Positions 6,031 through 52,423 of a stretch of 55,287 bases of DNA are shown piece after piece (position 1 is the stretch's first letter; every line of letters starts with the position of its first letter). The notes beneath the pieces are model-generated. The model was not told the origin of the DNA and searched no databases. It was given only the letters and a program-made list of their open reading frames with translations. The translations under genes and the position numbers were made by a program. Source of the stretch: Limisphaerales bacterium (lineage in GTDB: Bacteria > Verrucomicrobiota > Verrucomicrobiia > Limisphaerales > CANJXF01); contig JBKJOZ010000377.1 of assembly GCA_046595315.1 (NCBI GenBank), positions 1 to 55,287 on the forward strand. Direction: 5' to 3'.

Positions 6031-6121
6031 TATCTCGCCGATTCGCGCCGTTTTCGGTTCACCTTACGTTTCCTTGATACAATGCTCGCCCTGTTGTTAC
6101 ACTTTTGGCACCTTCAACTGG

Positions 6122-6985: not shown

Positions 6986-6987
6986 GC

Positions 6988-19374: not shown

Positions 19375-19480
19375 GTACAAACTACCTGTCCAATGAGAAA
19401 AATCTGATAGGAGATAGTATTTAAGACTATAACCAATTGAGAATTTGGAGCAACATTTTTGTGAGCGGAACCCGATGACC

Positions 19481-21153: not shown

Positions 21154-21166
21154 CGAGCGTAATTCA

Positions 21167-23217: not shown

Positions 23218-23288
23218 GCGTGAAAGTTATTAAAAAATTGTTTCAAAGGAAATATTCGTTCGGCCAATGGAAAAAATGATGAGATCGC

Positions 23289-24452: not shown

Positions 24453-24486
24453 CAGTTGTTTGCCGCGCCGTTCATTCGAGCGTCAA

Positions 24487-25929: not shown

Positions 25930-25938
25930 TGCGGTTAT

Positions 25939-30463: not shown

Positions 30464-30515
30464 CTCTCGCCGTTTCCAATTGCCATTCCATCGCAGTTAA
30501 AATTGGAAAAGTTTT

Positions 30516-34360: not shown

Positions 34361-35182
34361 TTAGTTTTTGTTGATTGCGGGAAGCGAAGGCAATGTTTCC
34401 AACTTAGTTTTCAACACGAATGATTTGTCGTCTTCAGCGCGCGTCAGGTCACTTGGAGTCACGGCGACCAATTTCTCACCCAAACCAAGAAAACCTCCCG
34501 AAGCCAACGCTGCGTAAACCACGCGGCCCGACTCCAGATCCACAGCCACATCTCTGATCTCACCAAGCCGAGTGTCCGCTACCCCTTTCACATCCATGCC
34601 CAACACGTCACTCCCTTTTAAAATTTTTCCTGGAACTAAATTGAATTCCGCGCCAGCCGCTTCGCGAATTTCCAGTCCGGGACGATTCACCGGAGTGACA
34701 CCGCTGGCCACCCCTTGAAAGTGCGCGCGGTTTTTGGCGACCGAATCACCTTTTGAAATTGTTTTCCGGTCCGCCACGGCGGGCCAATTATTCCGGTCCA
34801 TCCCCTGGGCTCTTTTCAACGATTCTTTGTCCGCATTCAAAACAAGTTTCTTGCCGTTCAAATCGACCTTCATGGAGGCTGAAGGCAATGGAATCAATTT
34901 TTCACCCAACCCTAAAAATCCGCCTGTGGAGAAGACCACGTAATTCAACTTTCCTGCAACGACATCCATCGCAATATCTTTTATTTCCCCGATTTTTTCC
35001 TGCTGCTGATTTACGACCTCCATTCCGATCAGCTCGCTGACCAGCGTCGGTTGTTTTCCTTCAGACACGAAAACGGTTTTAGTGGGAATATTTTGGTTGG
35101 TTTGAGCAGCAAGTTTTGTCGCGGCCACGACTGAAAAATAAGCCGCGCCCCCCAACAACAAAATCCATTTAAAGTTTCTCAT
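34361..35182 (-). CDS. Secreted protein with two PRC-barrel domains
   Basis: 273 aa with a signal peptide. It has two PRC-barrel-like repeats: LIGMEVVNQQQEKIGEIKDIAMDVVAGKLNYVVFSTGGFLGLGEKLIPLP and VLGMDVKGVADTRLGEIRDVAVDLESGRVVYAALASGGFLGLGEKLVAV. Confidence 0.8.
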   Translation of the reverse strand: MRNFKWILLLGGAAYFSVVAATKLAAQTNQNIPTKTVFVSEGKQPTLVSELIGMEVVNQQQEKIGEIKDIAMDVVAGKLNYVVFSTGGFLGLGEKLIPLPSASMKVDLNGKKLVLNADKESLKRAQGMDRNNWPAVADRKTISKGDSVAKNRAHFQGVASGVTPVNRPGLEIREAAGAEFNLVPGKILKGSDVLGMDVKGVADTRLGEIRDVAVDLESGRVVYAALASGGFLGLGEKLVAVTPSDLTRAEDDKSFVLKTKLETLPSLPAINKN

Positions 35183-35313
35183 TGGTCATCCTTGAGTGTT
35201 TGGAAAATCCAACCACTTCATTAATAAAAGGCAAATTTGGTAATCTGCAATCGGGCTATTTCCCGTTTTTTCTGAAGGTAAATCGGAGGAATGAGGATTG
35301 AGGTTTTTGCGAA

Positions 35314-35592
35314 TCAACGATGCTGAATATTTTTCCACAACCTGAAACCCAACGTGCAACCACTCCATAATTTAGCGATGCCGCTTTGTTTTTTGGTGGA
35401 GCGAAAAGGCGATAGAAGTGAAATTTTCAGTCTGGAAGCCACCTTGTAAAAACTATAGCCCCGATCAATCCACTCGGCGCCTTCCCGAAGATGACCCGCT
35501 TCCCCCTGCAACTCACGCCGATACAAATCGTTTTGTTTGATCAGCCGCGCCTTGCGGTTCTGGAGCCGTTTTAGTTCCGTCTTTGAAGCCAT
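35314..35592 (-). CDS. YqjK-like small protein
   Basis: 92 aa with an N-terminal basic coiled segment (LKRLQNRKARLIKQNDLYRRELQ). Its position after the YqjD/YqjE-like genes mirrors the E. coli yqjD-yqjE-yqjK order. It overlaps the upstream gene by 22 nt. Confidence 0.45.
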   Translation of the reverse strand: MASKTELKRLQNRKARLIKQNDLYRRELQGEAGHLREGAEWIDRGYSFYKVASRLKISLLSPFRSTKKQSGIAKLWSGCTLGFRLWKNIQHR

Positions 35593-35954
35593 GCGCGATC
35601 TTTTTTGAATTGAGCAATTGTTTCAGAAAAAGGAAGTGGAGCTGTCAAATGCCCTCGCAAAAAAAGAAATGCGGCTAGCGCACCAATTATACAAAACGCA
35701 AGCAGTCCGACCGCGACCCACAATCTTTGCTCCCACAAAAGAAATAAGACCGTGCACGAAATAGCGATCACCGCCATGAAGCTGGAAAATATACAGAGTG
35801 CGCCCCAAATCGCGACCGAGACCAGTCGAGATTTTTCTTCCTTCAATTCGATTGTCGCGAGTTCGATGCGATTTTTTACCATCGAAATACTCGTGTCCAA
35901 GGCGCGCCGCGCTGAGGCGAACAACCCTCCAAAAATAGATTCTAAATCAATCAT
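35571..35954 (-). CDS. YqjE-like / phage-holin-family (DUF1469-type) two-TM membrane protein
   Basis: 127 aa with two hydrophobic helices (VAIWGALCIFSSFMAVIAISCTVLFLLW and VAVGLLAFCIIGALAAFLFL). Its start overlaps the upstream stop (ATGA). Confidence 0.6.
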   Translation of the reverse strand: MIDLESIFGGLFASARRALDTSISMVKNRIELATIELKEEKSRLVSVAIWGALCIFSSFMAVIAISCTVLFLLWEQRLWVAVGLLAFCIIGALAAFLFLRGHLTAPLPFSETIAQFKKDRAWLQRRN

Positions 35955-36346
35955 GATTTTCGTTTAAGTAAAAACCCGGCCAGAAATCCCACACCCACGG
36001 CGATTCCAATGGCGCGATAAGGATTTTCGCGAATCACCTTGTCAGCTTGTTTTATTCCCTCCCCAGCGCGTTCTTCCAAATTGGCACAAGCTTCTTTAGC
36101 GTCGTCCAGCGCGACTTTCAAACGCTCTCGAACTTCACGGGTTTTCTCGGCGAGCTCCGCGCCGCTGGCCTTGATTAATTCCTCAGTGTCCTCAGCGACG
36201 AGCCGCAAATCATCCGCCAGCCGGGATTTGGCTTCTCGAAACCCGCTCAACTCATGTCCACCATTTCGTTTTGGCATAAATTTATTTTCCCCAATCTTAA
36301 GGAGAGTCAGGCCACTCGCAATCGGGTCGCTGAAGGCTTTTCGCAT
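35951..36346 (-). CDS. DUF883 (ElaB/YqjD/YgaM-like) tail-anchored stress protein
   Basis: The C-terminal anchor NPYRAIGIAVGVGFLAGFLLKRKS is typical of the family. The start is more likely ATG 36277 (108 aa) than 36346 (131 aa). Confidence 0.75.
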   Translation of the reverse strand: MRKAFSDPIASGLTLLKIGENKFMPKRNGGHELSGFREAKSRLADDLRLVAEDTEELIKASGAELAEKTREVRERLKVALDDAKEACANLEERAGEGIKQADKVIRENPYRAIGIAVGVGFLAGFLLKRKS

Positions 36347-36434: not shown

Positions 36435-37634
36435 ATGAAATTGCTTTTTGTTCACGAACGATTCGGCGCTCTGGCGGGCGCGGAAGCCAATGCCCACATC
36501 ACCGCAACGGAATTGAAGCGTCGCGGCCATAGCATCGGAATTCTTCATGGCCCAGCGACCGGCAAGGGCGAGGCCGCCTGGTTGCAAACTTTTTCCAAAC
36601 GTTTTTCCCTCGCAGCGAAAGGCAATGGGGCGCGCGTTCATGCGGCGCTGGAATTTTTTCAGCCGGATCTTGTTTACGTTCACAAAATGGCCGATCTTGA
36701 GGTGATTGCCTCGCTGGTTGCGGCCAAAGTTCCCGTCGTGCGCATGGTTCATGATCACGACATCTACTGCATGCGCAGTTACAAATATCATTATCTCACT
36801 CGCAAAATTTGCACCCGCGCGGCCGGACCCTTTTGTGTTTTCCCATGCGGCAGTTTTATAACGCGCAATCATGAAAGCGGCCTTCCGATAAAATTCGTAA
36901 GCTATCAGGAGAAGAAAAAAGAAATTTTTTTAAACCAACAATTTCAGCGCATGATCGTGGTGACGCAATACATGAAAGAGGAATTGCTGCGTAATGGATT
37001 TTCCGACGACAAAATCGAAATTCACGCGCCGGTTCCCCGCATGGGCGACCCAGATTTGCGCAGTAGTTTTAGCGAACGGAATTTAATTGTTTACGCCGGA
37101 CAAATCATTCGAGGAAAGGGTGTCGATATCTTACTCGAATCGCTCGCGCGGATGACGGTGCCTTTTGAATGCATTATTCTCGGCGACGGCAGCCACCGGC
37201 CTTACTGCGAAAAATTATGCAAAAAACTTGGTCTCAACGACCGCGTTCGTTTCATGGGATTTGTTCCCCAGGAAGAACTTAAAAATTTTTATCGCGAATG
37301 CACCGTGATGGCCATTAGCTCCGTTTGGCCTGAGCCATTCGCCACCATCGGCATGGAAGCGATGCGCTACGGAATTCCAGTGGTTGCTTTCGATGCAGGT
37401 GGCATCAAGGACTGGCTCCATGATGGTCAAAACGGTTTTCTCGTTCCCTGGATGGATCGCGACCGATACGCCGCACGAATCGAACAGCTTTTGAGAAACA
37501 AAGCACTCGCACGCGAAATGGGCGAACACGGTCATCGCGTTGTCGATGAACAATTCAGTTTTTCTCAATATATCCTCGACCTCGAAAACACCTTTCAAAA
37601 AGTGGTGGATGAATCGCGCCTGGTGGCGGCGTAA
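36435..37634 (+). CDS. Glycosyltransferase family 4
   Basis: 399 aa starting MKLLFVHERFGALAGAE. The C-terminal motif reads VMAISSVWPEPFATIGMEAMRYGIPVVAFDAGGIKDWL. Confidence 0.85.
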   Translation: MKLLFVHERFGALAGAEANAHITATELKRRGHSIGILHGPATGKGEAAWLQTFSKRFSLAAKGNGARVHAALEFFQPDLVYVHKMADLEVIASLVAAKVPVVRMVHDHDIYCMRSYKYHYLTRKICTRAAGPFCVFPCGSFITRNHESGLPIKFVSYQEKKKEIFLNQQFQRMIVVTQYMKEELLRNGFSDDKIEIHAPVPRMGDPDLRSSFSERNLIVYAGQIIRGKGVDILLESLARMTVPFECIILGDGSHRPYCEKLCKKLGLNDRVRFMGFVPQEELKNFYRECTVMAISSVWPEPFATIGMEAMRYGIPVVAFDAGGIKDWLHDGQNGFLVPWMDRDRYAARIEQLLRNKALAREMGEHGHRVVDEQFSFSQYILDLENTFQKVVDESRLVAA

Positions 37635-37771: not shown

Positions 37772-38413
37772 TTGAAAAAAAACAGACCACAATTTATCGC
37801 CATCGTCGGCGGCAGCGGCTCAGGAAAAACCTGGCTTGCCGACCGGCTCGGAAAATCATTTGGTAAAAAAGTCGCGCGCATTTCCCTCGATGATTTTTAT
37901 CGGGACCGCTCCCATCTCTCCGTCAAACAACGGAACCAAATCAACTTCGATCATCCCCGGGCAATTGATTGGAAAAATGTGGAGCGTGTGCTCAATGATT
38001 TTGCCGCAGGCCGCGCCGTGCGCACACCAAAATACAATTTTACGACTCACGCGCGCGAAGAAAAATCAATTTCAATGAAACCCAAGCCGCTCATCATCAT
38101 GGACGGACTTTGGCTCTTGCGCCGCCCGGTTCTGAGACGTCTTTTTTCTTGCCGCATCTTCGTCGATTGCCCGGGTTCAATATGTCTGCGCCGACGTCTG
38201 GAGCGAGACCTCGCTGAACGCGGCCGTGACGCTTCCGCTGTGCGAAAACAATTTCTCAAACATGTCCTGCCCATGCAGGAACGGTTCGTTGCCTCACAAC
38301 TGCGCTGGGCCAATGTCGTGATCAAACAACCGAGCGAGAATCAAATCAGCCAACTGACCGAACAATTAAAAACAATTTTGAAAACAAATAATTATGAGCG
38401 AACAGCAAATTAA
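37772..38413 (+). CDS. udk: Uridine kinase
   Basis: 213 aa with a TTG start. It has the P-loop IAIVGGSGSGKTWLA and is collinear with E. coli Udk (FYRDRSHLSVKQRNQINFDHPRAIDW, IIMDGLWLL, IFVDCPGSICLRRRLERDLAERGR). Confidence 0.85.
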   Translation: MKKNRPQFIAIVGGSGSGKTWLADRLGKSFGKKVARISLDDFYRDRSHLSVKQRNQINFDHPRAIDWKNVERVLNDFAAGRAVRTPKYNFTTHAREEKSISMKPKPLIIMDGLWLLRRPVLRRLFSCRIFVDCPGSICLRRRLERDLAERGRDASAVRKQFLKHVLPMQERFVASQLRWANVVIKQPSENQISQLTEQLKTILKTNNYERTAN

Positions 38414-39122
38414 CGCATTGCTCGTGAAACGTTTTCTTCAAACGCAAACTGTTTGGGGCCGGCAGCGGCTTCGTTTGGCCGTACACTGGAAACAATTTTC
38501 CTGGCGCGTCGTGGTTTCGTCCGCCCTCTTCCTCAAGCGGACTTTTGATGTTGTCGCGAGTTTTGTTTTCCTGGTGGTTTTCTCGCCGCTATTTCTGCTC
38601 ATCTCGGCGCTGATAAAACTGGAAGATGGCGGCCCGGTTTTCTTTGGGCAAACCCGGATTGGGAAATTTGGTTCCAAGTTCAAAATGTGGAAGTTTCGTT
38701 CCATGTGCATTGATGCCGAGGCTCGCATGAAGGATTTGCTTGCCAAAAACCAGCACAAGGATGGAGTAACCTTCAAAATTAAAGACGATCCGCGCGTTAC
38801 CAAAGTGGGTAAATGGCTTCGCAAATTTTCCCTCGATGAATTACCCCAATTTTTCAACGTCTTCATTGGCAATATGTCGCTGGTTGGCCCACGTCCGCCG
38901 GTGCCGCGCGAGGTCGCGCTCTACACCTTATCGGATCGACGTCGCCTCGCGGCACTTCCTGGAATTACCTGCTTCTGGCAAATCGGCGGTCGCAGCGAAA
39001 TTGATTTTTCTGGGCAAGTGCAGCTCGATGTTCGTTACATCGAGAGCCAAAGTTTTTGGTTGGATATTAAAATTTTAGCCAAAACCGTTCCAGCGGTTTT
39101 GTTCAGCAAAGGGGCATATTAA
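38394..39122 (+). CDS. Small monotopic phosphoglycosyl transferase (PglC/WcaJ-C-terminal type bacterial sugar transferase)
   Basis: 242 aa with a re-entrant helix carrying the Ser-Pro break (FVFLVVFSPLFLLISAL). It has GPVFFGQTRIGKFGSKFKMWKFRSM, the catalytic DE in SLDELPQFFNVFIGNMSLVGPRP, and LPGITCFWQIGGR. It overlaps udk by 20 nt. Confidence 0.9.
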   Translation: MSEQQINALLVKRFLQTQTVWGRQRLRLAVHWKQFSWRVVVSSALFLKRTFDVVASFVFLVVFSPLFLLISALIKLEDGGPVFFGQTRIGKFGSKFKMWKFRSMCIDAEARMKDLLAKNQHKDGVTFKIKDDPRVTKVGKWLRKFSLDELPQFFNVFIGNMSLVGPRPPVPREVALYTLSDRRRLAALPGITCFWQIGGRSEIDFSGQVQLDVRYIESQSFWLDIKILAKTVPAVLFSKGAY

Positions 39123-40417
39123 TGAAAGCTGTCCTTATTTGTCCTGCGGAGCGTGCGGAAGTTAGCGCACTCGAAGAATTTACGCCTTTGGTAAATCTTT
39201 CCATTCTGGGCAATCCCTTCATCCATCACTGGCTTGAATATCTCGCGGTCTGCGGGATTAAAAATGTGACCGTTCTCGCGGCAGATCGTCCCGAGCAAAT
39301 TCGCGCCGAAGTGGGCGACGGTTCACGCTGGGGAGTGCAAGTAGAAATTATTCCCGAATCTCACGAGCTCACTCTTGAAGAAGCACGCCAAAAATTGGGC
39401 GGCTCTGACGACATTATTTTGATCGACCACTTGCCGGGGTTGCCCACCGAAAAACTTTTTGCGAGTTATGTCGCTTTTTATTCTACCGTTCACAGGTGGA
39501 TCGAGAAAAATTCTCACCTAATGCAAATCGGTTTAAAAGAAATTCGTCCTGGCATCTGGGCTGGACTACACAGTCAAATTTCTCCGCGTGCGACACTGAC
39601 TGCGCCTTGCTGGATCGGTGAAAATGTTTTGATCAACGCAGACGCCGAGGTCGGCCCAATGACGATTTTAGAACGTGGCGTGGTTGTCGAAAGCGGCGCA
39701 ACAATCACCCATGCGTGGATCGGCAAAGAAACTTTTGTCGGCAACTTTACTCAGGTGAATAACTCCCTCGCCTTCGGAAACACGTTGGTAAATTTCATGA
39801 ACGCCTCCGTCGTGATAATCACCGATCCATTTTTGCTGTGCGCTTTGCAAGACCGGGAAATTTCTGTGAGTGCCGGAAATTTGTTTGGACGATGCGTAGC
39901 CCTCATCGTTCTGGCCTTAACCTCCCCGTTCGCCCTCGTGACAATGCTGAAAGCCAGATTCTTGGGTCACCGCACTTTTCGTCAGCGCCGAGCTATCGCA
40001 TCGCATTCGACCCCCCAACAATATCCAACGTTTATTTATTACGAATTTTCTTCGGCAAACGGATGGTGGAAACGCTGGCCGCAGTTATGGAGCATCGTGT
40101 GTGGCGAATTCACTTGGGTCGGCAACCGTCCGCTCACAACTTTTCAGGCCGGACAATTAGCCAATGAATTTGAGCGGCTCTGGCTCGCGGCGCCGATTGG
40201 ATTAATTTCCAAGGGTGATTCAGAAGGTTGCTCTGATTTGTCTTCCGACGAAGCCCATGCTCACGCCAGCTTCTATGCGGCACAAGCCAACTGGCGTTTA
40301 GATCTGATGATTCTTTTTCGCACCGTCAAACACTTGGCCGGGCGGAAAAAACCGGCCTCCGTGCAAAACGATTCAGCCACACTGAAAACGCGCCGTTTCA
40401 CCTTGCTGGCGCGTTAG
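39122..40417 (+). CDS. Fusion protein: degenerate NTP-transferase-like domain + left-handed beta-helix (hexapeptide) + degenerate sugar-transferase (pseudo-PGT) domain
   Basis: 431 aa; the ATG overlaps the PGT stop (TAATG). The N-terminus keeps the nucleotidyl-transferase layout (NLSILGNPFIHHWLEYLAVCGIKNVTVL..GDGSRWGV) but lacks the GxGxR loop. Hexapeptide repeats span about aa 150-235. The C-terminus has PGT-like blocks (LALTSPFALV, WPQLWSIVCGEFTWVGNRPL, AAPIGLIS, NWRLDLMILFRTV) with KR in place of the catalytic DE. Confidence 0.6.
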   Translation: MKAVLICPAERAEVSALEEFTPLVNLSILGNPFIHHWLEYLAVCGIKNVTVLAADRPEQIRAEVGDGSRWGVQVEIIPESHELTLEEARQKLGGSDDIILIDHLPGLPTEKLFASYVAFYSTVHRWIEKNSHLMQIGLKEIRPGIWAGLHSQISPRATLTAPCWIGENVLINADAEVGPMTILERGVVVESGATITHAWIGKETFVGNFTQVNNSLAFGNTLVNFMNASVVIITDPFLLCALQDREISVSAGNLFGRCVALIVLALTSPFALVTMLKARFLGHRTFRQRRAIASHSTPQQYPTFIYYEFSSANGWWKRWPQLWSIVCGEFTWVGNRPLTTFQAGQLANEFERLWLAAPIGLISKGDSEGCSDLSSDEAHAHASFYAAQANWRLDLMILFRTVKHLAGRKKPASVQNDSATLKTRRFTLLAR

Positions 40418-40607
40418 CCCCTAAATTTTATAATTTTTTCCCCTCAGGGGTTTCAGGCGAACACTGAGAAAAATGTGCGGCCATCGCCGCTGGAAGAAAG
40501 GTGCCCCCCCTGATTGTTGAGCCGTCTTTGCGCAACCTATAGTCAACGCGTATTTCCGAGCAGGAAGCAGGCAAATCCAAGGTCTTGCAGAAATAAAAAA
40601 AACATCT

Positions 40608-40910
40608 ATGAAAGTTCAAATTTGCGGAGACACATTAAGCATCACCGGTATGAAAGAATTAGGCGCGTCCAACGCTAATTCGTTTCGCGACCACGTTCGT
40701 GCAGCGCTGACCGAAGCAAACAAAATTATCGAGATCGATCTTTCCCAAACCATGTTCGTGGACAGCTGCGGACTGGGGGCGTTGATTTCGCTTCATAAAG
40801 TTGCCTGCACGCGAAATGGGCAAGTGCGCCTGCTCAATCCCACTCCGCCCGTCCAGCAGATTCTGGAACTCACCCGGATGCATCGCATTTTTGAAATCGT
40901 AAAACGCTGA
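40608..40910 (+). CDS. STAS-domain anti-sigma-factor-antagonist-like protein (SpoIIAA/RsbV/SypA-like)
   Basis: 100 aa. The phospho-acceptor context is conserved (MFVDS53CGLGALISL), followed by LNPTPPVQQILELTRMHRIFEI. Confidence 0.85.
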   Translation: MKVQICGDTLSITGMKELGASNANSFRDHVRAALTEANKIIEIDLSQTMFVDSCGLGALISLHKVACTRNGQVRLLNPTPPVQQILELTRMHRIFEIVKR

Positions 40911-40914
40911 GGAC

Positions 40915-42702
40915 ATGCCGCCCTCCCTCCCAATGCCATCGACCGCACGCCTCGGGTTTTCCATGGCGTGCGAATTGGAAGAAGTCCGCCCGATTGCCAA
41001 AGCCACGCGCGAATTTTTAGCCGCCAAAGGATTATCAGAAAATGAACTCATGGCGTGCGAATTGGTTTTGGTTGAGGCGTGCAACAACGCGGTGCTCTAC
41101 GTGATTCCATCGAGGCAACTCGAGCCAATCGGCGTTGAAATCTTCTGCGACGATTCGAAAATTGAGATCCAGATTCACGACCACACTGCTGGTTTTGAAC
41201 TGCCCGAACAGGTTGATCTGACCGACCTAGAAAGCGAAAGCGGGCGCGGTCTTTTCATCATCCAATCTTTGATGGATGACGTCAGTTACGCTGGGGGATT
41301 TGGGGAAAACACTCTGACGCTTCGCAAAATCCGCCCGCCGCAAAACAAAGAAATCATCTCAGAGAAAACGATTGAAAAACTGAAATTAAAACTGGCCGAG
41401 AACGAACAGATCATTGATGACATGACCGAGGAAATCAGTTCCTGCTACGAAAGTTTGTCTGCCATCTTTAGGAGCGGCGCTGAACTCGGGAAGTCTCACA
41501 ATCTCCAAACTTTCTCGCGATCATTGTGCGACGATTTGCTGAAAATTAATTCTGCTGACTGGTTTTTGCTCCGCATCGCACCGAAGGACGATACTGCGTT
41601 ATCCGTTTTCGTTTCGTCAGATTCCTCGGTTCAACTGCCCAGCATTTCTCCGGTTAATTCGGACGTTCATTCATTTGCGGAGATTAAGGCCGCCACCAGC
41701 CAAAAAGATGTTTGGTTCAATTCGAGAAATCCGCTCCACCCAAATGATCCGCTTCACGCCATGCCAGCGGCGCGCGTTGGATTGGTTCACCCGTTCTATT
41801 TTTCCGAAACTCTCATTGGAACTTTAGCCATTGGCAAAACACGAGCAGAACATCCTTTTACGTCAGCACATCTCAACGTGATCCATACGGTTTCCGATTT
41901 TTTAGCCATGCAGATCGTCAATGCTCGCCTTTACGAGGAACGACTCAATCACGGCTTGGTGACCCGTGAATTGGAAATTGCACGCGAAATTCAACGCGCT
42001 TTGCTCCCGAAAAAATTGCCGCGATTGCCCGGCTTTGCTCTCGCCGGTTTTTGCGAAAGTGCAAGACATGTGGGTGGAGATTTTTACGACGCCGTTCAAA
42101 TCGATGAACATTCTGCGCTGCTCGTGATCGCTGATGTGATGGGGAAAGGTGTCCCGGCGGCAATGTTCGCCGCGATTTTGCGCAGCATTTTGCGCGGTTC
42201 ACCAGAACTGGTCCGCCAACCCGCCGCGCTGCTGACCCGCGTGAACGGATTACTTCACGAAGAACTTTCCGATGTCGAAATGTTTATCACGGCACAACTG
42301 GCGTTCATCGACGTGCGTAAGCGTGAACTGATCGTCGCCAATGCCGGACATTGCCCTGCCCTGCTCTTTTGCGAAAACAATCCGGTGCCCAAACAAATTT
42401 CTCCGGAGGGAATGCCGCTCGGTATTTTGCGAAACGCTCTTTTCACCGAGGTGAAGGAACCATTGTTCCACCAATGCCGGGTTGTCTTCTACACCGATGG
42501 AGTTACGGAATCGCGCAACGCCAATGATCAATTTTTTGGGCATCAACGTCTCGTCGATTGGATGAGCGCGACGGCCGGAAAATTTCTAACGGCGGAACAA
42601 TTGAAAGAGTCTCTCGCGGCGGAGTTGAACCTTTTTCGGGATCGTAGCGCCCCGAGTGACGACCAGACATTTTTAATTTTGGCAGAGAATTTTCTAAACT
42701 GA
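40915..42702 (+). CDS. Fused RsbW/SpoIIAB-type serine kinase - GAF-like - SpoIIE/PP2C serine phosphatase
   Basis: 595 aa. The kinase half has ELVLVEACNNAVLY, HDHTAGFE and ESGRGLFIIQSLMD. The GAF-like middle ends LIGTLAIGK...FLAMQIVNARLYEE. The PP2C half has REIQRALLP, GGDFYD, IADVMGKGVPAAMF, FYTDGVTES and DDQTFLIL. Confidence 0.85.
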   Translation: MPPSLPMPSTARLGFSMACELEEVRPIAKATREFLAAKGLSENELMACELVLVEACNNAVLYVIPSRQLEPIGVEIFCDDSKIEIQIHDHTAGFELPEQVDLTDLESESGRGLFIIQSLMDDVSYAGGFGENTLTLRKIRPPQNKEIISEKTIEKLKLKLAENEQIIDDMTEEISSCYESLSAIFRSGAELGKSHNLQTFSRSLCDDLLKINSADWFLLRIAPKDDTALSVFVSSDSSVQLPSISPVNSDVHSFAEIKAATSQKDVWFNSRNPLHPNDPLHAMPAARVGLVHPFYFSETLIGTLAIGKTRAEHPFTSAHLNVIHTVSDFLAMQIVNARLYEERLNHGLVTRELEIAREIQRALLPKKLPRLPGFALAGFCESARHVGGDFYDAVQIDEHSALLVIADVMGKGVPAAMFAAILRSILRGSPELVRQPAALLTRVNGLLHEELSDVEMFITAQLAFIDVRKRELIVANAGHCPALLFCENNPVPKQISPEGMPLGILRNALFTEVKEPLFHQCRVVFYTDGVTESRNANDQFFGHQRLVDWMSATAGKFLTAEQLKESLAAELNLFRDRSAPSDDQTFLILAENFLN

Positions 42703-42703
42703 T

Positions 42704-43060
42704 ATGTCCAGAAAAATATTAATCATCGATGACAAGCCGTTTATGGTGCGACTGATTCAGCACCACTTGGAGCGCGCGGGTTATGAATTGATCAAGGCGC
42801 GAAATCCACAGGAAGCGGCCGACGCCATCGCCCTGCAATCTCCTGAACTCGTCTTGTTGGATGAATCAGGTGCCAATCAAATCACGCTCGGCGATTTCAA
42901 AGCAAAAGAACCGGCTCATCGCTTGCCGGTGATTCGCATGACCGACATGCCACAGACTCTCGATGAAAACCACCCCGGCAACGAAGTCGTTTTAACCAGA
43001 CCGTTCAGCCCGACTCACTTGGTCGCGGAAGTAAAACGGTTAGTGCGCGAAACCAAATAA
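42704..43060 (+). CDS. Stand-alone receiver (REC) domain protein, atypical
   Basis: 118 aa with the acidic pocket ILIIDDK, phospho-acceptor LVLLDES and Thr in VIRMTD. The conserved Lys position reads Arg (LTRPFSP) and the post-Asp 'MP..dG' turn is absent. Confidence 0.75.
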   Translation: MSRKILIIDDKPFMVRLIQHHLERAGYELIKARNPQEAADAIALQSPELVLLDESGANQITLGDFKAKEPAHRLPVIRMTDMPQTLDENHPGNEVVLTRPFSPTHLVAEVKRLVRETK

Positions 43061-43065: not shown

Positions 43066-44259
43066 ATGAAATCTGTTCTCCCTATTTTTATCATGATCGA
43101 CGCCTGCGGTTGGGAAATCGTGAAGCGCGATCCTTTTCTCAACTCGATTGCGCCGGAACGGAAAAAGCTCGGCTCCGTTTTCGGTTACAGCTCGACTTGC
43201 GTGCCCTCCATTCTCTCCGGGCGCTGGCCCGTCGAACATCGCAATTGGTGCTACTTTGTTTACGACCCAAAAAATTCTCCGTTCAAATTTCTTAAGCCGT
43301 TACGCTGGTTGCCCTCGGCCCTCACCAGTCGTCGTATTTTCCGGCGCTGGCTCACGAAGCTCGTTCGCCGCCACCTTGGCTTCGAAGGCTATTTTGATCT
43401 CTACAACATTCCGTTCAAACACATCACGCTTTACGACTTCAGTGAAAAGAAAAGCCCACTCAAGCCCAAGGGAATGAATCGTGGCTCAAATATTTTTGAT
43501 TTTCTGGGCGAGAACAAAATTCCTTATTTCGTGAGCAACCCCGACAAAACGGAGCCGGAAAATTTTGAAAATCTCCTCACCACAATCAAAGGCGAGAAAA
43601 TTGATTTCGCATTTTCTTACTGGCCCGGACTCGACGGACTGCTGCACAGCGTCGGCAATCAATCGCCCGAGGTTCCAAAACGCCTGCGTCATTATGAACA
43701 GTGGATCGAAAAAGTGATGGCGACGGCGCGCGAACATTACGACGAAGTGAAGCTCTACGTTTTCAGCGATCATGGGATGGCCAATTGTGATGAGTTAATC
43801 GATTTGAAAGCCAAGATCGATGCGCTTGATGTGAAAATGGAAAAGGATTACGCCGTGGTTTACGACTCCACCATGGCACGCTTTTGGTTCTTCAACAAAA
43901 ACGCTCGCGAGAAAATTTCCCGTTGCCTGCAAGGTGTTCCAGAAGGCCGGATCCTGCCTGATTCCGAACTGGAAGAAATGCGCGCTCTTTTTCCAGATCG
44001 CTATTTTGGGGAATTAATTTTCCTCGTAAAAGAGGGCGTTTTGATTGTGCCAAGTCACATGGGCGAACGCCCCATTCGCGCCATGCATGGCTATCATCCT
44101 TCGGACAAACACAGTTACGCCGCGCTGTTCACGAACCAGACAGAAATTCCCGACGACATCAATGCCATCCCCGATATTTATAAATTGATGACGCAGGAGG
44201 CTGAACAGGCGCGCATCGAAAACAAAAAACCATCGGCGGTTCATGCCGCCGCAATTTAA
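43066..44259 (+). CDS. Alkaline-phosphatase-superfamily type I phosphodiesterase/nucleotide pyrophosphatase-like enzyme (cytoplasmic)
   Basis: 397 aa with no signal peptide or TM. It has the metal/nucleophile blocks FIMIDACGWE and GYSSTCVPSILSGRWPVEH, plus GLDGLLHSVG, VFSDHGM and AMHGYH. Confidence 0.7.
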   Translation: MKSVLPIFIMIDACGWEIVKRDPFLNSIAPERKKLGSVFGYSSTCVPSILSGRWPVEHRNWCYFVYDPKNSPFKFLKPLRWLPSALTSRRIFRRWLTKLVRRHLGFEGYFDLYNIPFKHITLYDFSEKKSPLKPKGMNRGSNIFDFLGENKIPYFVSNPDKTEPENFENLLTTIKGEKIDFAFSYWPGLDGLLHSVGNQSPEVPKRLRHYEQWIEKVMATAREHYDEVKLYVFSDHGMANCDELIDLKAKIDALDVKMEKDYAVVYDSTMARFWFFNKNAREKISRCLQGVPEGRILPDSELEEMRALFPDRYFGELIFLVKEGVLIVPSHMGERPIRAMHGYHPSDKHSYAALFTNQTEIPDDINAIPDIYKLMTQEAEQARIENKKPSAVHAAAI

Positions 44260-44271: not shown

Positions 44272-46956
44272 ATGCCTACCTTGACTGCTTCAACCACTTT
44301 AGTTCGCTCCGAAAGTTTTCCACGAACGAAAAGAAAATCTCCCGTTGATGTTGGCTTGCAACAATGGTTCGAGGCCAAAGCGTCTGAATTTCCAAAAGCA
44401 GTCGCGGTATCCTTTCCGGAAAATTCCAAACAACAGGAAATTAGCTATGGCGAATTAAATTTTCGCGCCAATCAACTCGCGCGACACCTGCGCAAAGCGG
44501 GCGTCGGGCCGGACGTTGTCGTCGGCATTTGCGCCGAGCGTTCGTTTGAATTGATCGTTGCCGCCCTCGCCGTCATCAAAGCGGGCGGCGCGTACCTTCC
44601 CCTCGATCCCACTTATCCAAAGGAACGTTTGTCGTTCATGCTCGAAGACACCAGTGCGCCGATAATTTTAACACAAGAAAAGCTCGCCCCGACTTTGCCG
44701 AAGAACGATGCACATTTGCTTTGTCTCGATACCGATTGGAAAGCCATCGCCAAAGAGCCGGGCGAAAATCTCGACTGCATCGCCAGCCACGATCATCTGG
44801 CTTATCTGATTTATACATCCGGATCGACCGGAAAACCGAAAGGCGTCGCCATGCGCCACGGCCCGCTGGTCAATCTGTTATTGTGGCAATTCCAGAACTG
44901 GAGCGCGCGCCCGGACGCCAAAACGTTGCAGTTTGCTTCGCTCAATTTTGACGTTTCGTTTCAGGAAATTTTTTCGACGCTCGGCTCCGGCGGAACGCTC
45001 GTCCTGGTCTCCGAAGAATTACGCCGAGATTCCAATCGGCTCCTCAATTTTTTGGATGAACAGCAAGTTGAAAGAATTTTTTTACCGTTTGTCGCGTTGA
45101 AACATTTGGCGGATGCCTCGGAGCGCGAACAAATTTTCCCACGACAACTGCGCGAAGTCATCACGGCGGGAGAACAATTGCAGATCACGCCGCAAGTGAC
45201 GCGATTTTTCAGCAAACTGCCTCGCTGTACGTTGCACAATCAGTATGGACCTTCGGAAACCCACGTCGTCACCGCGTTTGATTTGAAAGGTTCGCCGCAA
45301 AACTGGCCGGCGCTTCCGTCCATAGGGAAAGCCATTTTCAACACGCAAATTTTTATTTTGGACGAACAGCTTCGACCTGTAGAACCCGGCACGCCGGGCG
45401 AGTTGTTCATCGGCGGTGATTGTCTGGCGCGTGGATATTTGAATCGCCCCGAGTTGACCGCCGAAAAATTTATCGCCAGTCCATTCGCGCAAAATTCCCG
45501 GCTGTATAAAACGGGAGATCTCGCTCGTCAGTTGCCGGACGGAAATTTTGAGTTTCTCGGACGCATCGATCATCAAGTTAAAATTCGCGGATTCCGGATC
45601 GAGCTCGGGGAAATTGAAACCGTTTTGAGCCAGCATCCGGCCATTCGCGAAGTCGTTGTCGTCGCCAAAGAAAGCGCCAACAGCGACAAAAAACTGGTCG
45701 CCTACATCGTGGCCAATCCTGGGGCCGCAGCCACTTCGTCGGAGCTAAGAAAATTTCTCACCAACAAAATTCCGAGCTACGCAGTTCCCTCAATTTTCAT
45801 GCAGCTCCCGGCATTTCCGTTGACGCCAAATGGCAAGGTGGATCGGCGCGCTTTGCCCGAGCCTGTGGTCGAGGAGGATTTTTCAGCGCAAATCAAACCG
45901 CCGCAAAGCCCGTTAGAAATGCAATTGCAACTCGTGTTCGAAAAATTTCTCAATCGTCGGCCAATTGGAATTGACGTGAGCTTTTTCGAACTGGGCGGCG
46001 ATTCCCTGCAAGCTCTGAAGTTGATCGTCGAAATCGAGCGGTTCACGGGGAAGAAATTGCCGCTCGAAATTCTTTTTCAAAATTCCACGATCGAATCGCT
46101 GGCGACATACATCCAAAATTCTTCCGGCGACTTCAAATTTTCCTCCATGGTTCCGCTCCAGCCCTTAGGAAATCGGCCGCCGCTATTTTTCATCCACACC
46201 ACGCCCGGCGATGTGCTGGCTTACGGCGCATTGATTTATCATCTAGGCCTGGATCAGCCGTGCTACGGATTTCAGTCACTCGGTTTTGGCCGCAAGGAAG
46301 AAAGTCACACGCGCGTCGATCAAATGGCAGCGTATTACATCAAGCAACTCCGGACGATCCAACCGCATGGCCCCTATTATCTCAGCGGCTGGTGCTACGG
46401 TGGAATTGTCGCTGTCGAAATGGGGCATCAACTTTTGGCCGCCGGTGAAGAAGTGGCTTTGATGGCGTTGATTGAAACGCCGGCTCCGGCTCCGGCTCCG
46501 GCCAAATCCAATTTTCGATTTTATGTGCGGCGCATCGGTTGCGTGCTGAAAATGAGTCCGCGGCAATGGCGGATTTATCTCGCTGAAAAAATTAAATATT
46601 ACCGGGGCGTTAAACGAGAAAACGAAATGCGTTTTCGTCGGGTAGATCAATCCGAAAACCCAGATAAAATCGACGAGATCAATCAGCATCTCGAACAACT
46701 CGAGCATGTTTATCACACCAATCTCGACGCGCTGAATTCTTACAACGTTCGTCCATATCCGCGCAAAGTGGTGTTATTCAACGCGCAAGATCAAGATCCT
46801 GCACAGGTCATCGATCCGCTCTACGGCTGGCCGAGTCTCGCGTCGCAAATCGAAGTCCACAGCGTGTCTGGAAATCACGACACAATTTTAATGGAGCCAC
46901 ACGTCCGGCAACTCGCAGAAAAATTCTCCGACTGTCTGGTGCGCTCCCAACATTAA
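44272..46956 (+). CDS. NRPS-like single-module enzyme: adenylation - thiolation (PCP) - thioesterase, no condensation domain
   Basis: 894 aa. A-domain cores are LAYLIYTSGSTGKPKGV, FDVSFQEIF, NQYGPSE, GELFIGGDCLARGY, YKTGDLA, GRIDHQVKIRGFRIELGEIE and PNGKVDR. The PCP motif is FFELGGDS578LQALKL. The TE has PLFFIHTTPGD, GWC708YGG and GNHDTIL. Confidence 0.9.
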   Translation: MPTLTASTTLVRSESFPRTKRKSPVDVGLQQWFEAKASEFPKAVAVSFPENSKQQEISYGELNFRANQLARHLRKAGVGPDVVVGICAERSFELIVAALAVIKAGGAYLPLDPTYPKERLSFMLEDTSAPIILTQEKLAPTLPKNDAHLLCLDTDWKAIAKEPGENLDCIASHDHLAYLIYTSGSTGKPKGVAMRHGPLVNLLLWQFQNWSARPDAKTLQFASLNFDVSFQEIFSTLGSGGTLVLVSEELRRDSNRLLNFLDEQQVERIFLPFVALKHLADASEREQIFPRQLREVITAGEQLQITPQVTRFFSKLPRCTLHNQYGPSETHVVTAFDLKGSPQNWPALPSIGKAIFNTQIFILDEQLRPVEPGTPGELFIGGDCLARGYLNRPELTAEKFIASPFAQNSRLYKTGDLARQLPDGNFEFLGRIDHQVKIRGFRIELGEIETVLSQHPAIREVVVVAKESANSDKKLVAYIVANPGAAATSSELRKFLTNKIPSYAVPSIFMQLPAFPLTPNGKVDRRALPEPVVEEDFSAQIKPPQSPLEMQLQLVFEKFLNRRPIGIDVSFFELGGDSLQALKLIVEIERFTGKKLPLEILFQNSTIESLATYIQNSSGDFKFSSMVPLQPLGNRPPLFFIHTTPGDVLAYGALIYHLGLDQPCYGFQSLGFGRKEESHTRVDQMAAYYIKQLRTIQPHGPYYLSGWCYGGIVAVEMGHQLLAAGEEVALMALIETPAPAPAPAKSNFRFYVRRIGCVLKMSPRQWRIYLAEKIKYYRGVKRENEMRFRRVDQSENPDKIDEINQHLEQLEHVYHTNLDALNSYNVRPYPRKVVLFNAQDQDPAQVIDPLYGWPSLASQIEVHSVSGNHDTILMEPHVRQLAEKFSDCLVRSQH
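46480..46503 (+). repeat. Hexanucleotide tandem repeat (CCGGCT)x3 + CCGGCC inside the TE domain
   Basis: Read directly from the sequence. It is in frame and encodes PAPAPAPA. Confidence 0.9.
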
Positions 46957-46976: not shown

Positions 46977-48530
46977 ATGACCAACCAAGATGTCACTCGA
47001 AATATTTGGCGGAATTCCATTTCCAATTACGTTTGCACCGCGATCCGGATGGTCGTCGGCCTTCTGATGTTTCGGATGCTTTATCAACATCTGTCACGTG
47101 AAGAATTTGGTTTTTGGGCGCTGCTTTGGAGCGTGTTTGGTTACGGCATCCTGCTCGATTTCGGATTCGGTTTTACAGCCGAGAAAAGAGTGGCAGAGCT
47201 TTCGGTTCATCAAGAATGGGATCGCTTGAGCCGCATTCTCAGCACCATCTTTTTTGTCTATCTTGCCATCGGAATTTTGATGGTCTTGACGATCCTTTTA
47301 ACTTCCAGTCACGTGATTGATTTTTTTAACGTCACCTCAGGGAACCACGAACGTTTTCGCAAAATTTTAGTCTGGTTCTTTGCGGGAATGGCAATTGCAT
47401 TTCCACTCGGAATTTTTCCAGAAATCTTGATCGGCCAGCAAAGGATTTGCCTGACCAATATTATTTTTTCCACCGGCGTCGTCGCCAATTTTGTTTTTGT
47501 CGCGTTGGCCGTCCATTTTCACTGGAAGCTGCAAACCATTTTCATCATTGCGCTGCTCAGCGGCATTCTCCCGTGCGTGGTTTCGGCAATGTTCGCCTTT
47601 CAATATTTACCCAAGGTGAAAATTCGACTGAGCTATTTTTCGTGGGGGACTATTCGTGAGACGATGCAGTTTTCCATTTTTGCTTATATCAGCACGGTCA
47701 GTAACATCATCGTCGCCAAGACAGATCAACTGGTGATTAGCGCAGCCTTGTCCGTATCGGCAGTGGCAGTTTATCAAGTCAGCGCCAAGCTAGCGGAAAC
47801 GTTTGGCGGGTTTACTCAACAATTGCCGAGCACATTTTCTCCTGCGGCGGCGCACATGCACGCCAAGGGAGACAAAGCATTTCTCAAAAATCTCCTCATC
47901 GACGGCACTCGCTTCACGCTAATGATTGGCACGCCGCTTTATTTTATCTGCGCGTTTTACATGGAGGGCATTCTTTCCATTTTGACCGGTGACAAAATCC
48001 CGAGCCACGAAACGTTTTGGATCGGGCAGGTTCTTCTCTTCTGGTGCTACATGGTTTTGGTCACGCAAAGTGTATCCAAACGCATTTTCATGATGTGCGG
48101 ACACGAACGCATTTTGATGAAATTAAGCTGCGGTGAAGCGCTGCTGAATCTCGCGTTGAGCATCGGATTGGTTCTTTATTTCAAAAATGTTTTGTGCGTC
48201 GCCCTCGGCTCACTGATCTCCACGATGATCTTTGGTTGGTTTTTCGTCTGGCCCATGGCGGCACGCGAAGCGGAAATGTCCTGCTGGCAACTGGCGCGCA
48301 CTGTCTTGATTCCAATCTGGCTAGCGTCGCTGCCGTTGTTGGGCTTTCTCTTGCTCGGTCGATTTGTCCCGTGGTTTGATTTTCGCACCAGCACGCTTCT
48401 GTTTTTTGCAGAATGCGCAGTGGCAGTTTTGGTCGCTGCCATCAGTTTTTGGCACGCAGCCCTTAAACGAAACGAACGCGAACATCTCACCGCGCGATTT
48501 GGAAAATATTTCAGGATTACCCCGGTATGA
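46977..48530 (+). CDS. wzx: Wzx-type oligosaccharide/polysaccharide flippase (MOP superfamily)
   Basis: 517 aa with about 12-14 TM segments. The N-terminal pattern NSISNYVCTAIRMVVGLLMFRMLYQHLSREEFGFWALLWSVFGYGILLDFGFG is typical of polysaccharide biosynthesis (Wzx) proteins. Confidence 0.75.
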   Translation: MTNQDVTRNIWRNSISNYVCTAIRMVVGLLMFRMLYQHLSREEFGFWALLWSVFGYGILLDFGFGFTAEKRVAELSVHQEWDRLSRILSTIFFVYLAIGILMVLTILLTSSHVIDFFNVTSGNHERFRKILVWFFAGMAIAFPLGIFPEILIGQQRICLTNIIFSTGVVANFVFVALAVHFHWKLQTIFIIALLSGILPCVVSAMFAFQYLPKVKIRLSYFSWGTIRETMQFSIFAYISTVSNIIVAKTDQLVISAALSVSAVAVYQVSAKLAETFGGFTQQLPSTFSPAAAHMHAKGDKAFLKNLLIDGTRFTLMIGTPLYFICAFYMEGILSILTGDKIPSHETFWIGQVLLFWCYMVLVTQSVSKRIFMMCGHERILMKLSCGEALLNLALSIGLVLYFKNVLCVALGSLISTMIFGWFFVWPMAAREAEMSCWQLARTVLIPIWLASLPLLGFLLLGRFVPWFDFRTSTLLFFAECAVAVLVAAISFWHAALKRNEREHLTARFGKYFRITPV

Positions 48531-49444
48531 ACGATCCACTTGTCAGCATCATTTTGCGTTCCTACAACGAAGCCTGGGCTTTGGGCGCCACTCTTGCTGC
48601 CTTGCAAGCGCAGGAGTATAAAAACTGGGAACTGATCGTAATCGACTCCGGCTCCACCGACGGCTCCGCTGATTTAATTCGCAAAGCCAACCCGCGTCAT
48701 TTTCATCAAATCAAGCCATCTGAATACAATCCCAGCCGCGTGATGAACTGGGGAATGCGCCTGGCGAAAGGTGATTATGGAATTTTTCTCAACGCCGACG
48801 CCCTTCCCCAAAACGAAAATTGGCTCCGCCCGCTGGTTGAGCCACTCCTGAATCCTAAAACGGCCGCCGTTTTCGGGAGGCAGATTCCGCGCCTGGATTG
48901 CCAGGCCGTTTACGCCTGCGATTACGAACGCTGTTTTGGCCCGCATCGCGAGTCAGCAAATTGGGATCATTTTTTCAGCATGGTGAGCAGCGGACTTCGT
49001 AAAGACATTTGGGCGCAACGCGGTTTCCTTGAAAAACTTCAATACGCCGAAGACGACGAATATACGCGTTGGTGCAAAACCGAAAATTATCGGGTGGTTT
49101 ATTGCCCCGAATCGGTCGTCATGCACTCGCACAATTACACTCCGGCGCAATCCTACAAACGTAGCTTTGGCGATGCGCGCGCGCTGGCCGCTTCGTGGCA
49201 GAATGATCCAAATTATTTTAATTTTTTCCGAACCGTTTTGCTCGGCTCGATCAGCGACCTTCGGCATGACTTTCGATTTTGCGCGCAGCACCGCCGCTTG
49301 CCGGAATTTCCACACGCTGCACAAATCCGATGGCATCAACGTCGCGGAAAACTCGATGGATTTCGCGCCGGTTGGAAAGATTATCGAATAAACGACACGA
49401 CGTGCGTGCCACAAACGTTGTCGGCTGTTTTATCTGGAAAATGA
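48527..49444 (+). CDS. Glycosyltransferase family 2
   Basis: 305 aa; the start overlaps the wzx stop (ATGA). It has VSIILRSYNEAWALGATLAALQAQEYKNWELIVIDSGSTDGS and FLNADALP. Confidence 0.85.
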   Translation: MNDPLVSIILRSYNEAWALGATLAALQAQEYKNWELIVIDSGSTDGSADLIRKANPRHFHQIKPSEYNPSRVMNWGMRLAKGDYGIFLNADALPQNENWLRPLVEPLLNPKTAAVFGRQIPRLDCQAVYACDYERCFGPHRESANWDHFFSMVSSGLRKDIWAQRGFLEKLQYAEDDEYTRWCKTENYRVVYCPESVVMHSHNYTPAQSYKRSFGDARALAASWQNDPNYFNFFRTVLLGSISDLRHDFRFCAQHRRLPEFPHAAQIRWHQRRGKLDGFRAGWKDYRINDTTCVPQTLSAVLSGK

Positions 49445-50583: not shown

Positions 50584-50588
50584 CGCCC

Positions 50589-51872: not shown

Positions 51873-52379
51873 TCACTCTTTTCCTTGGACAAACGAACTC
51901 AGGTTTTCCGGGGGCGGTGGAATCTGAATGACCTCCAAATAATTTTTAATGCTCTCTGCCATTTTGACTGTTCCATTAAAATCATTCGGCTTGTGCAATA
52001 AACTGTTTGCGGCCAAATCATAAACTAGACGCGATCGCAACTCGCTTTTGTCCGAGGTGAGAATAAAAACCAAAAGCCTTTTGTGTTCGGGTTGCTCCCG
52101 AATCCAAGTCAACAGTTGTATGCCATCCGTTTCGGGCATGTTCAAATCCAGCAACAAGCAAACGGGATAGGGAAATTTATTACGATCCGCAAACTTTCCT
52201 TCCCCTTTGAGATAAGCTTTGGTTTCGTCCCCGCTGCGAGTCGAGAGGAGTGGCTTTGCCCAACCGACCTGAGTAAATGCCTCATGAAAAAGAAAGAAAT
52301 GATCTTCGTTATCGTCGGCCAAAAGAATTGTTCCGTTCAGCTTCATAAAAGGCGCGGACCCGATATTTGCATTGATCAA
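51873..52379 (-). CDS. Stand-alone response-regulator receiver protein (canonical)
   Basis: 168 aa; the start may instead be Met13 at 52343. It has ILLADDNED, LLLDLNMPETDG, FILTSD and LHKPNDF. Confidence 0.8.
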   Translation of the reverse strand: MINANIGSAPFMKLNGTILLADDNEDHFFLFHEAFTQVGWAKPLLSTRSGDETKAYLKGEGKFADRNKFPYPVCLLLDLNMPETDGIQLLTWIREQPEHKRLLVFILTSDKSELRSRLVYDLAANSLLHKPNDFNGTVKMAESIKNYLEVIQIPPPPENLSSFVQGKE

Positions 52380-52423
52380 CGCAGGTGTCGAATCTGTTTG
52401 AAAATAATTTCTGAAAATAAAAG

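Follow-up and report, generated by a model that had tools for sequence, protein, structure and literature searches.

A predicted kinase/phosphatase switch with a STAS partner in a glycan cassette of Verrucomicrobiota, probably acting without a sigma factor

Partner switches have long been regarded as regulators of sigma factors. In a stretch of 55,287 nucleotides (nt) from a Limisphaerales bacterium of the phylum Verrucomicrobiota (contig JBKJOZ010000377.1 of assembly GCA_046595315.1), the whole of which is called the window here, three adjacent genes were identified which code for a STAS protein, for a protein joining a serine kinase, a GAF domain and a PP2C phosphatase (the fusion), and for a single-domain receiver (REC). 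The best explanation for this module, towards which we lean with moderate confidence, is a sigma-independent phospho-toggle of the partner-switch type which is dedicated to the surrounding glycan operon of the Wzx/Wzy type. Polysaccharide synthesis is probably switched on and off by it, with no sigma factor involved. Judged by sequence and gene order in relatives, the module is a conserved cassette of the Verrucomicrobiota. Its features in the window are the following:

40608 to 40910, + strand: single-domain STAS protein of 100 amino acids (aa), with the predicted phospho-acceptor Ser53 in DSCGLG
40915 to 42702, + strand: kinase-GAF-PP2C protein, predicted to be bifunctional, whole open reading frame (ORF), 595 aa
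40972 to 41328, + strand: RsbW/SpoIIAB-type GHKL serine kinase domain of the fusion, residues 20-138 (PF13581)
41362 to 41490, + strand: long signalling helix, residues 150-192, a helix in the AlphaFold2 (AF2) model, with the motif EE(I/L)SSCYESLSAIFR
41497 to 41907, + strand: divergent GAF sensor domain, residues 195-331, assigned by profile and fold
42106 to 42681, + strand: SpoIIE/RsbU-type PP2C domain, residues 398-589 (PF07228), preceded by a helix at residues 317-363
42704 to 43060, + strand: stand-alone receiver of 118 aa (PF00072), with Lys replaced by Arg99 and a shortened β3-α3 loop

The STAS gene is separated from the fusion gene by 4 nt and the fusion gene from the receiver gene by 1 nt, all on the + strand, and the trio and its neighbours are packed like an operon, with genes 1-5 nt apart. 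An earlier note on this DNA had described the three ORFs with these sizes and gaps and had quoted their motifs, all of which are present in the ORFs and translations of the window. Four of the domain families named in it gave significant Pfam matches, with the STAS protein matching PF01740 at E=6.5e-15, the kinase half of the fusion matching HATPase_c_2 (PF13581) over residues 20-138 at E=2e-20, the phosphatase half matching SpoIIE (PF07228) over residues 398-589 at E=1.8e-41, and the receiver matching Response_reg (PF00072) at 7.3e-8, its 33 bits being just above the cut-off of 30.2. The order of the domains and the location in a polysaccharide locus parallel those of SypE and SypA, which supports the proposal of a partner-switch-type trio containing a bifunctional kinase/phosphatase.

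For the catalytic residues, the fusion was aligned with 27 full-length relatives of 49-67% identity. The residues for catalysis and metal binding are kept in both halves and are invariant throughout the 28 sequences. In the kinase these are E54 and N58 of the N-box, D89xTxG93 of the G1 motif and G110-R-G112 of the G2 motif; in the PP2C domain they are D389 (GGDFYD), D407 (ADVMGKG), D528-G529 (YTDG) and D582-D583 (DDQT). In the PDB, a profile made from the family alignment matched Rv1364c (3KE6) best by sequence, and with both halves, and further matched SiaA (6K4E), RssB, RsbW (6M36), SpoIIAB (1L0O and 1TH8) and SpoIIE. In the NCBIfam alignments, the PP2C half was placed with SiaA, SpoIIE and RssB and the kinase half with RsbW and SpoIIAB.

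The AF2 model of the whole fusion reached a mean predicted local distance difference test (pLDDT) score of 82.6 and showed, from the N- to the C-terminus, the kinase (residues 12-139), a long helix (150-192), an α/β domain (197-308), another long helix (317-363) and the PP2C domain (374-591). A Foldseek search with the whole chain returned SiaA (6K4E, template modelling (TM) score of 0.80), RssB, SpoIIE, RsbX and Rv1364c. This search was dominated by the PP2C domain and was uninformative for the middle domain, so that residues 146-365 were modelled alone. The sub-model had a pLDDT of 86.8 and a predicted TM score of 0.76, and its top 50 PDB matches were all GAF domains, among them that of PtsP (3TRC, TM 0.77, E=1e-6). 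By profile, GAF_2 covered residues 195-331 of the fusion in the window at E=1.7e-5, where its 25.5 bits fell just short of the gathering score (28.6). The middle segments of the family matched PF01590 in 19 of 19 cases (best 7e-9), and 15 each matched GAF_2 and GAF_3. Since all 19 family segments match PF01590 and the best matches of the sub-model are GAF structures only, the middle domain, called GAF-like in the note, is a genuine GAF domain. The helix in front of it carries the motif EE(I/L)SSCYESLSAIFR, which is specific for the family and nearly invariant, with E173, S175, C177, Y178, E179, L181, S182, I184, F185 and R186 unchanged in the 28 sequences. The motif was still recognisable in relatives from Opitutae with about 28% identity.

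The STAS protein additionally matches PF13466 at 1.7e-11, passes the cut-off of the NCBIfam model TIGR00377 (anti-sigma factor antagonist) with 56.9 bits and has a weak match to MlaB (E=4e-4). Ser53, the predicted acceptor, lies in the context D52-S53-C54-G55-L56-G57, which is equivalent to D57-S58-S59-G60 of SpoIIAA. The motif DS(C/S)GLG, including Ser53, is invariant in the orthologue alignment of 23 loci, in line with the conserved phospho-acceptor context noted before.

In the orthologue alignment, the receiver keeps D9, D10, D53 and T80. The exchange of the conserved Lys for Arg, on which the note had remarked, is present as Arg99 (T-R99-P-F) in the window, where it is confined to this one sequence; 16 of 16 orthologues carry Lys (T-K-P-F in TKPFSP), and the exchange was thus rejected as a trait of the family. 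The usual DxxMPxMDG loop is gone from the receiver of the window and from those of its two closest relatives, L001 and L004 (L numbers denote the loci of relatives), and the REC gene is missing in L002, L003, L005 and L006. Because of these losses, the receiver is best regarded, from the sequences compared, as an ancestral canonical part of the module which is degenerating or lost in the branch of the window.

The glycan cassette in which the module is embedded comprises the following further features:

36435 to 37634, + strand: glycosyltransferase of family 4 (GT4), first gene of the cassette
37772 to 38413, + strand: uridine-kinase-family protein (PRK; PF00485, 3.9e-34), a conserved early part of the cassette
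38394 to 39122, + strand: small Bac_transf priming phosphoglycosyl transferase (PGT) of 242 aa (PF02397, 1.1e-67), the proposed STAS target
39122 to 40417, + strand: protein of 431 aa with NTP-transferase-like, LbH and Bac_transf-remnant parts, an apparent pseudo-PGT
40514 to 40543, + strand: weak candidate internal promoter TTGTTG-N18-TATAGT, from direct reading of the sequence
43066 to 44259, + strand: protein of the type I phosphodiesterase/alkaline-phosphatase superfamily (Phosphodiest; PF01663, 5.6e-19), directly 3' of the switch
44272 to 46956, + strand: enzyme like a non-ribosomal peptide synthetase, with adenylation, thiolation and thioesterase domains (A-T-TE), a lineage-specific passenger of the operon
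46977 to 51830, + strand: Wzx-type flippase, glycosyltransferase of family 2 (GT2), protein of 434 aa and GT4, the downstream part of the same operon

The gene for Bac_transf is located on the same strand as the STAS ORF, 1.5 kb before it, and its product matches TIGR03025 at 294 bits and contains the catalytic DE dyad in KFSLDELPQ. The 431-aa protein consists of an N-terminus like that of sugar-1-phosphate nucleotidyltransferases, an LbH part, a hydrophobic re-entrant helix and a Bac_transf domain of which only the C-terminal half is present. Since the catalytic segment KFRSM...DE is missing, this protein is an apparent pseudo-PGT and an alternative candidate for the partner of STAS. Its gene always abuts a genuine Bac_transf gene.

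The best 120 database matches of the fusion were all full length and of one architecture, and the named ones among them belong to Verrucomicrobiota and are automatically annotated as 'SpoIIE family protein phosphatase' or 'RsbU/anti-sigma regulatory factor'. Full-length matches in species-representative genomes were found in Limisphaerales (61%), Pedosphaera, Verrucomicrobiaceae, a metagenome-assembled genome (MAG) labelled Akkermansia, Opitutae and Terrimicrobiaceae. Outside Verrucomicrobiota, the matches cover mainly the PP2C domain, and a fused kinase, where present, is C-terminal to the phosphatase. An exhaustive search with the kinase and helix segment gave 221 representative clusters at E≤1e-10, in which the closest kinase-first relatives contain either a GAF domain or no insert (394-419 aa), never a receiver. 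In one relative, L017 (5525-7588, from a MAG labelled Akkermansia muciniphila), the fusion gene is apparently frameshifted, and a proline-rich read-through joins PP2C to REC, so that the gene is a pseudogene or else the assembly is in error here.

Conservation of the neighbouring genes was counted with the window proteins as tblastn probes on 23 kinase-first loci, where only loci with enough flanking sequence were included for each gene:

STAS beside the fusion: 21 of 23 loci
REC directly downstream of the fusion: 15 of 22 loci
431-aa pseudo-PGT: 14 of 20 loci
Bac_transf upstream of the switch: 13 of 17 loci
Phosphodiest downstream: 11 of 20 loci
Wzx: 9 of 15 loci
GT2: 8 of 14 loci
PRK: 9 of 16 loci
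GT4: 9 of 16 loci
A-T-TE: 4 of 17 loci

On long contigs, the order of the cassette is GT4, PRK, Bac_transf, LbH protein, STAS, fusion, REC and Phosphodiest, and where REC is absent, Phosphodiest follows immediately after the fusion. Among the glycan neighbours, Bac_transf and the pseudo-PGT are conserved best; their linkage extends to relatives of about 35% identity and, in a rearranged order, to Opitutae. For the pseudo-PGT family 511 matches were obtained, the named members of which belong to Verrucomicrobiota except for one labelled Candidatus Acidoferrales, and in the reverse look-up from the pseudo-PGT the switch adjoins it in three of four long contigs, whereas a two-component pair takes the downstream place in the fourth. 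The note had linked the module to a downstream glycan/aminoacyl pathway. The glycan part of this link holds, with Bac_transf and the pseudo-PGT as conserved partners upstream and Phosphodiest downstream, but the aminoacyl part does not, since the A-T-TE gene is present in only four of the 17 loci. It is restricted to the closest relatives, and the version in L002 carries an extra N-terminal acetyltransferase domain.

No match to sigma-70, ECF (extracytoplasmic function) or anti-sigma families was obtained in the 55 kb among the ORFs of 150 aa or more and those shorter ones that were tested, as the note had stated for sigma and anti-sigma genes. Likewise, no sigma or anti-sigma gene was found beside the module in the neighbourhoods of about ten annotated relatives. 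The ORFs of ECF size at 51873-52960 (- strand) were considered as a sigma/anti-sigma pair and were rejected, since they code for a second stand-alone receiver (168 aa) and for GreA.

A gap of 190 nt (40418-40607) precedes the STAS gene, and gaps of about 160-260 nt were found at this place in the relatives whose gene tables were read. The candidate promoter TTGTTG-N18-TATAGT within it is partly conserved with the two closest loci, L001 and L004, and may be an internal promoter which parts the switch and the downstream genes from the genes for the priming enzymes. It was not reported by a consensus promoter scan, and a scan for promoters and terminators gave fewer sites than shuffled sequences and no usable operon boundary. 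The RNA fold of the 190-nt leader (z=+0.66) revealed no riboswitch-like element, and an Rfam scan of the entire window gave zero matches.

In the mechanism that we propose, the N-terminal GHKL kinase of the 595-aa protein would phosphorylate Ser53 of the STAS protein encoded next to it, and the PP2C domain at the other end of the 595-aa protein would take the phosphate off again. The balance of the two activities would be set allosterically, through the two long helices, by a ligand bound to the GAF domain between them. Most relatives would have an additional input, namely whether the cotranscribed single-domain receiver is phosphorylated; in the window, the GAF domain is probably the main input, because the receiver is degenerate. 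The unphosphorylated STAS protein would be the active form. It would contact the upstream initiation machinery directly, namely Bac_transf, possibly through the catalytically dead paralogue, and this contact would gate polymer synthesis post-translationally and not through a sigma factor. Post-translational control and the phosphorylation of Ser53 are plausible from the conserved motifs. That STAS acts on the pair of Bac_transf and pseudo-PGT is proposed more tentatively, by the logic of gene fusions ('Rosetta stone'), since a STAS domain is fused to Bac_transf in All4160 of Anabaena. As a generalisation, which at this stage is speculative, a kinase/phosphatase controlled by a GAF ligand might set a free STAS protein throughout Verrucomicrobiota, which then binds and switches the priming transferase or its dead, LbH-fused scaffold paralogue.

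Several observations weigh against this mechanism. The contact between STAS and Bac_transf is deduced from adjacency and from a fusion in another phylum, and the 190-nt gap with its possible own promoter parts the STAS gene from the upstream genes. The GAF domain of the fusion in the window scores below the Pfam threshold. In L087 (1849-9544), a cassette of GT4, PRK, Bac_transf, pseudo-PGT and Phosphodiest is present without STAS, fusion and REC; two genes beyond it, a REC-HisKA_3-HATPase_c kinase and a REC-GerE regulator are encoded, as if a two-component system had taken the place of the partner switch. Conversely, the trio lies outside glycan operons in three relatives (the contig of P0030, L013 and L020), and the output partner is therefore not fixed. 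In L013 (9633-14059) and L020 (9632-14033), both from marine Verrucomicrobia, the trio is directly upstream of a MacB-like ABC ATPase and its permease, so that the neighbour is not a sigma gene there either; this position suggests that the trio is portable and may regulate different neighbouring machines. Finally, the kinase domain could bind a sigma factor which is encoded beyond the 55 kb.

The last point belongs to an explanation which we consider rather unlikely, namely a partner switch of the classical kind, whose output is transcriptional. The kinase or the STAS protein would then sequester a sigma factor or an anti-sigma factor such as FlgM, encoded elsewhere, as in the models of CrsR/CrsA-RpoS and HsbR/HsbA, and the location in the operon would reflect mere co-regulation. 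The TIGR00377 score of the STAS protein and the homology of the kinase half to the anti-sigma factors RsbW and SpoIIAB agree with such an output, fused REC-PP2C-kinase proteins which control RpoS are documented (PMC6482189), and only 55 kb of the genome are in view. However, neither the window nor the approximately ten annotated relatives contain a sigma or anti-sigma gene beside the module, and its tight and deep conservation in a biosynthetic operon, next to a priming transferase, matches the precedents of SypA and All4160, for which the output is non-transcriptional.

A genuine switch with a different STAS target, such as Phosphodiest, the flippase or a second-messenger enzyme whose gene is outside the operon (as for SiaC and SiaD), is decidedly unlikely in our estimation, even if Phosphodiest directly follows the module in 11 of the 20 loci and comes directly after the fusion in those without REC. 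The position of the trio in front of an ABC transporter in L013 and L020 would also fit a different target, since STAS proteins such as MlaB regulate ABC transporters and the STAS protein has its weak MlaB match, and the PP2C domain of SiaA is the best structural match. Yet the linkage to Bac_transf and the pseudo-PGT is more consistent than that to the phosphodiesterase gene, a documented fusion precedent exists for STAS and Bac_transf only, and no GGDEF or EAL gene was found among the scanned ORFs of the window. It is most improbable that one catalytic half is a pseudo-enzyme, which would leave a GAF-regulated phosphatase (or a kinase) with the opposing activity in trans or lacking altogether. 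RssB is an example of a PP2C fold which lost catalysis, and the G1 and G2 motifs of the kinase are degenerate in L031, a distant, Terrimicrobiaceae-like relative; every motif residue of kinase and PP2C is invariant, though, in the protein of the window and its 27 relatives.

Among the remaining genes of the cassette, the gene for the uridine-kinase-family protein shares 20 nt with the Bac_transf gene, and the cassette is an unusual site for an enzyme of nucleoside salvage. Its product reaches 195 bits with the equivalog model NF004018, whose cut-off is 180. The 434-aa ORF at 49279-50583 has no Pfam or NCBIfam match, yet is conserved in the operon of many relatives. The A-T-TE enzyme contains a DltA-like adenylation domain, and a DltB-like MBOAT protein (14007-15503, + strand) is encoded 30 kb off in another glycan cluster; taken together, the two are a hint at the aminoacylation of a glycan.

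Elsewhere in the window, at least two further glycan gene sets are present between 4870 and 27072. One is a Wzm/Wzt ABC-transporter set (6074-8310) with AsnB, an acyltransferase, an enzyme like pyridoxal-phosphate-dependent decarboxylases and GT4 proteins; the other, on the minus strand (17917-27072), codes for a Bac_transf protein of 568 aa, GT2 and GT4 proteins and a Wzy_C polymerase. Just upstream of the cassette (34361-36346, - strand), genes for a PRC-barrel protein, a small ORF, a protein like those of holin superfamily III and a DUF883 protein were identified. The same set (PRC+BON, holin-like, DUF883_C) is present in the upstream flank of L001 and is thus a conserved neighbour. The region 27284-33155 (+ strand) codes for a 1059-aa protein with WD40 and Big_7 domains, followed by a protein of the glycoside hydrolase family 9 (GH9) cellulases with CelD_N, and a GH9 gene upstream of the cassette was also found in L085. 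Six ORFs of 274-731 aa are without a Pfam match (8256-9275, 10626-12821, 15511-16653, 22132-23217, 49279-50583 and 54454-55278).

The evidence for a direct control of polysaccharide enzymes by partner switches is sparse and of recent date. In the cassette, such a control would be present in a compact form which occurs throughout the phylum and whose parts can be separated genetically: STAS as a protein of its own, a single enzyme that is predicted to be bifunctional and carries a GAF domain, and an adjacent priming transferase with its pseudo-enzyme paralogue. The question of the STAS output would thereby become directly testable. The cassette would also give a handle on the regulation of capsules and extracellular polysaccharides in Verrucomicrobiota, a phylum which is poorly studied but ecologically abundant. 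The module is conserved and uncharacterised, yet it is not a new principle, and its proteins are already automatically annotated as 'SpoIIE family protein phosphatase'. If the proposed mechanism is true, the gating of the priming transferase by STAS would correspond to what the STAS-Bac_transf enzymes of cyanobacteria do, but with unfused parts, and would reveal a kind of target which is still unknown for SypA.

In the literature, no description of the Verrucomicrobial module or of a combination of HATPase_c_2, GAF, SpoIIE and STAS was found, so that the comparison is made with related systems. All three protein families of the switch and its phospho-Ser motif are also those of RsbU/RsbV/RsbW and SpoIIE/SpoIIAA/SpoIIAB. 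In those systems, however, the components are separate proteins and the cognate sigma factor is encoded in the same operon, whereas no such sigma factor was found in the 55 kb of the window. A PP2C domain and an RsbW-like kinase in one protein, with a STAS partner, are also known from HsbR/HsbA in Pseudomonas, CrsR/CrsA in Shewanella and Rv1364c in M. tuberculosis. There, the order is sensor-PP2C-kinase, while the kinase is N-terminal here; the order PP2C-kinase was found in all non-Verrucomicrobial fused matches, and only there. The outputs of HsbR, CrsR and Rv1364c are sigma factors or FlgM, and these systems are not embedded in glycan operons.

Closer in its setting is SypE of Vibrio fischeri, a kinase-REC-PP2C protein which phosphorylates SypA within the syp locus and acts downstream of syp transcription; unphosphorylated SypA is the active form, and its target is unknown (PMC3610818, PMC8256260). 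Both systems have an N-terminal RsbW-like serine kinase (with Asn52 in SypE and Asn58 here), a regulatory middle part and a C-terminal PP2C domain, and both polysaccharide loci contain the gene for the STAS substrate, which is a predicted one here. SypE has no associated sigma factor, and none was found beside the module in the 55 kb. They differ in the host phylum, which is Verrucomicrobiota here, and in the middle part, which is a GAF domain here and a receiver in SypE, while the REC of the Verrucomicrobial module is a separate gene and canonical in many relatives. The earlier note had spoken of the REC as split off, which implies descent from a SypE-like protein. This is not supported, since the nearest kinase-first relatives are without a REC insert, none having been found between kinase and PP2C in any relative examined, and the stand-alone REC appears as the ancestral canonical partner. 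Because the closest kinase-first relatives have GAF or no insert, the likeness to SypE in domain layout would be the result of convergence or domain swapping and not of orthology. The analogy to SypA and SypE thus seems to hold functionally, and the 595-aa fusion is, by the same comparison, not a member of the SypE family.

For the proposed target, the nearest precedent is found in cyanobacteria, where fusions of STAS and Bac_transf are common, being rare elsewhere (PMC13555669). All4160 of Anabaena, a STAS domain fused to Bac_transf, is under the control of the SpoIIE phosphatase HenR and the kinase Alr3423, and the genetics of a non-phosphorylatable All4160 variant, published in 2026, indicate that phosphorylation of Ser74 is inhibitory (PMC13555669). 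In synechan synthesis, the priming transferase is XssP (PMC8205485). The Anabaena system, which works without a sigma factor, and the Verrucomicrobial module, beside which none was found, share a phosphatase of the SpoIIE type, a kinase of the RsbW type, a Ser in STAS, a Bac_transf protein and a receiver, which is a proposed input in the module. Their parts are joined differently: in Anabaena, one protein unites STAS with Bac_transf, and the kinase is a protein apart from the phosphatase, which includes the REC, whereas in the window STAS is a free-standing ORF of 100 aa, kinase and phosphatase are fused around a GAF domain, and REC is free-standing.

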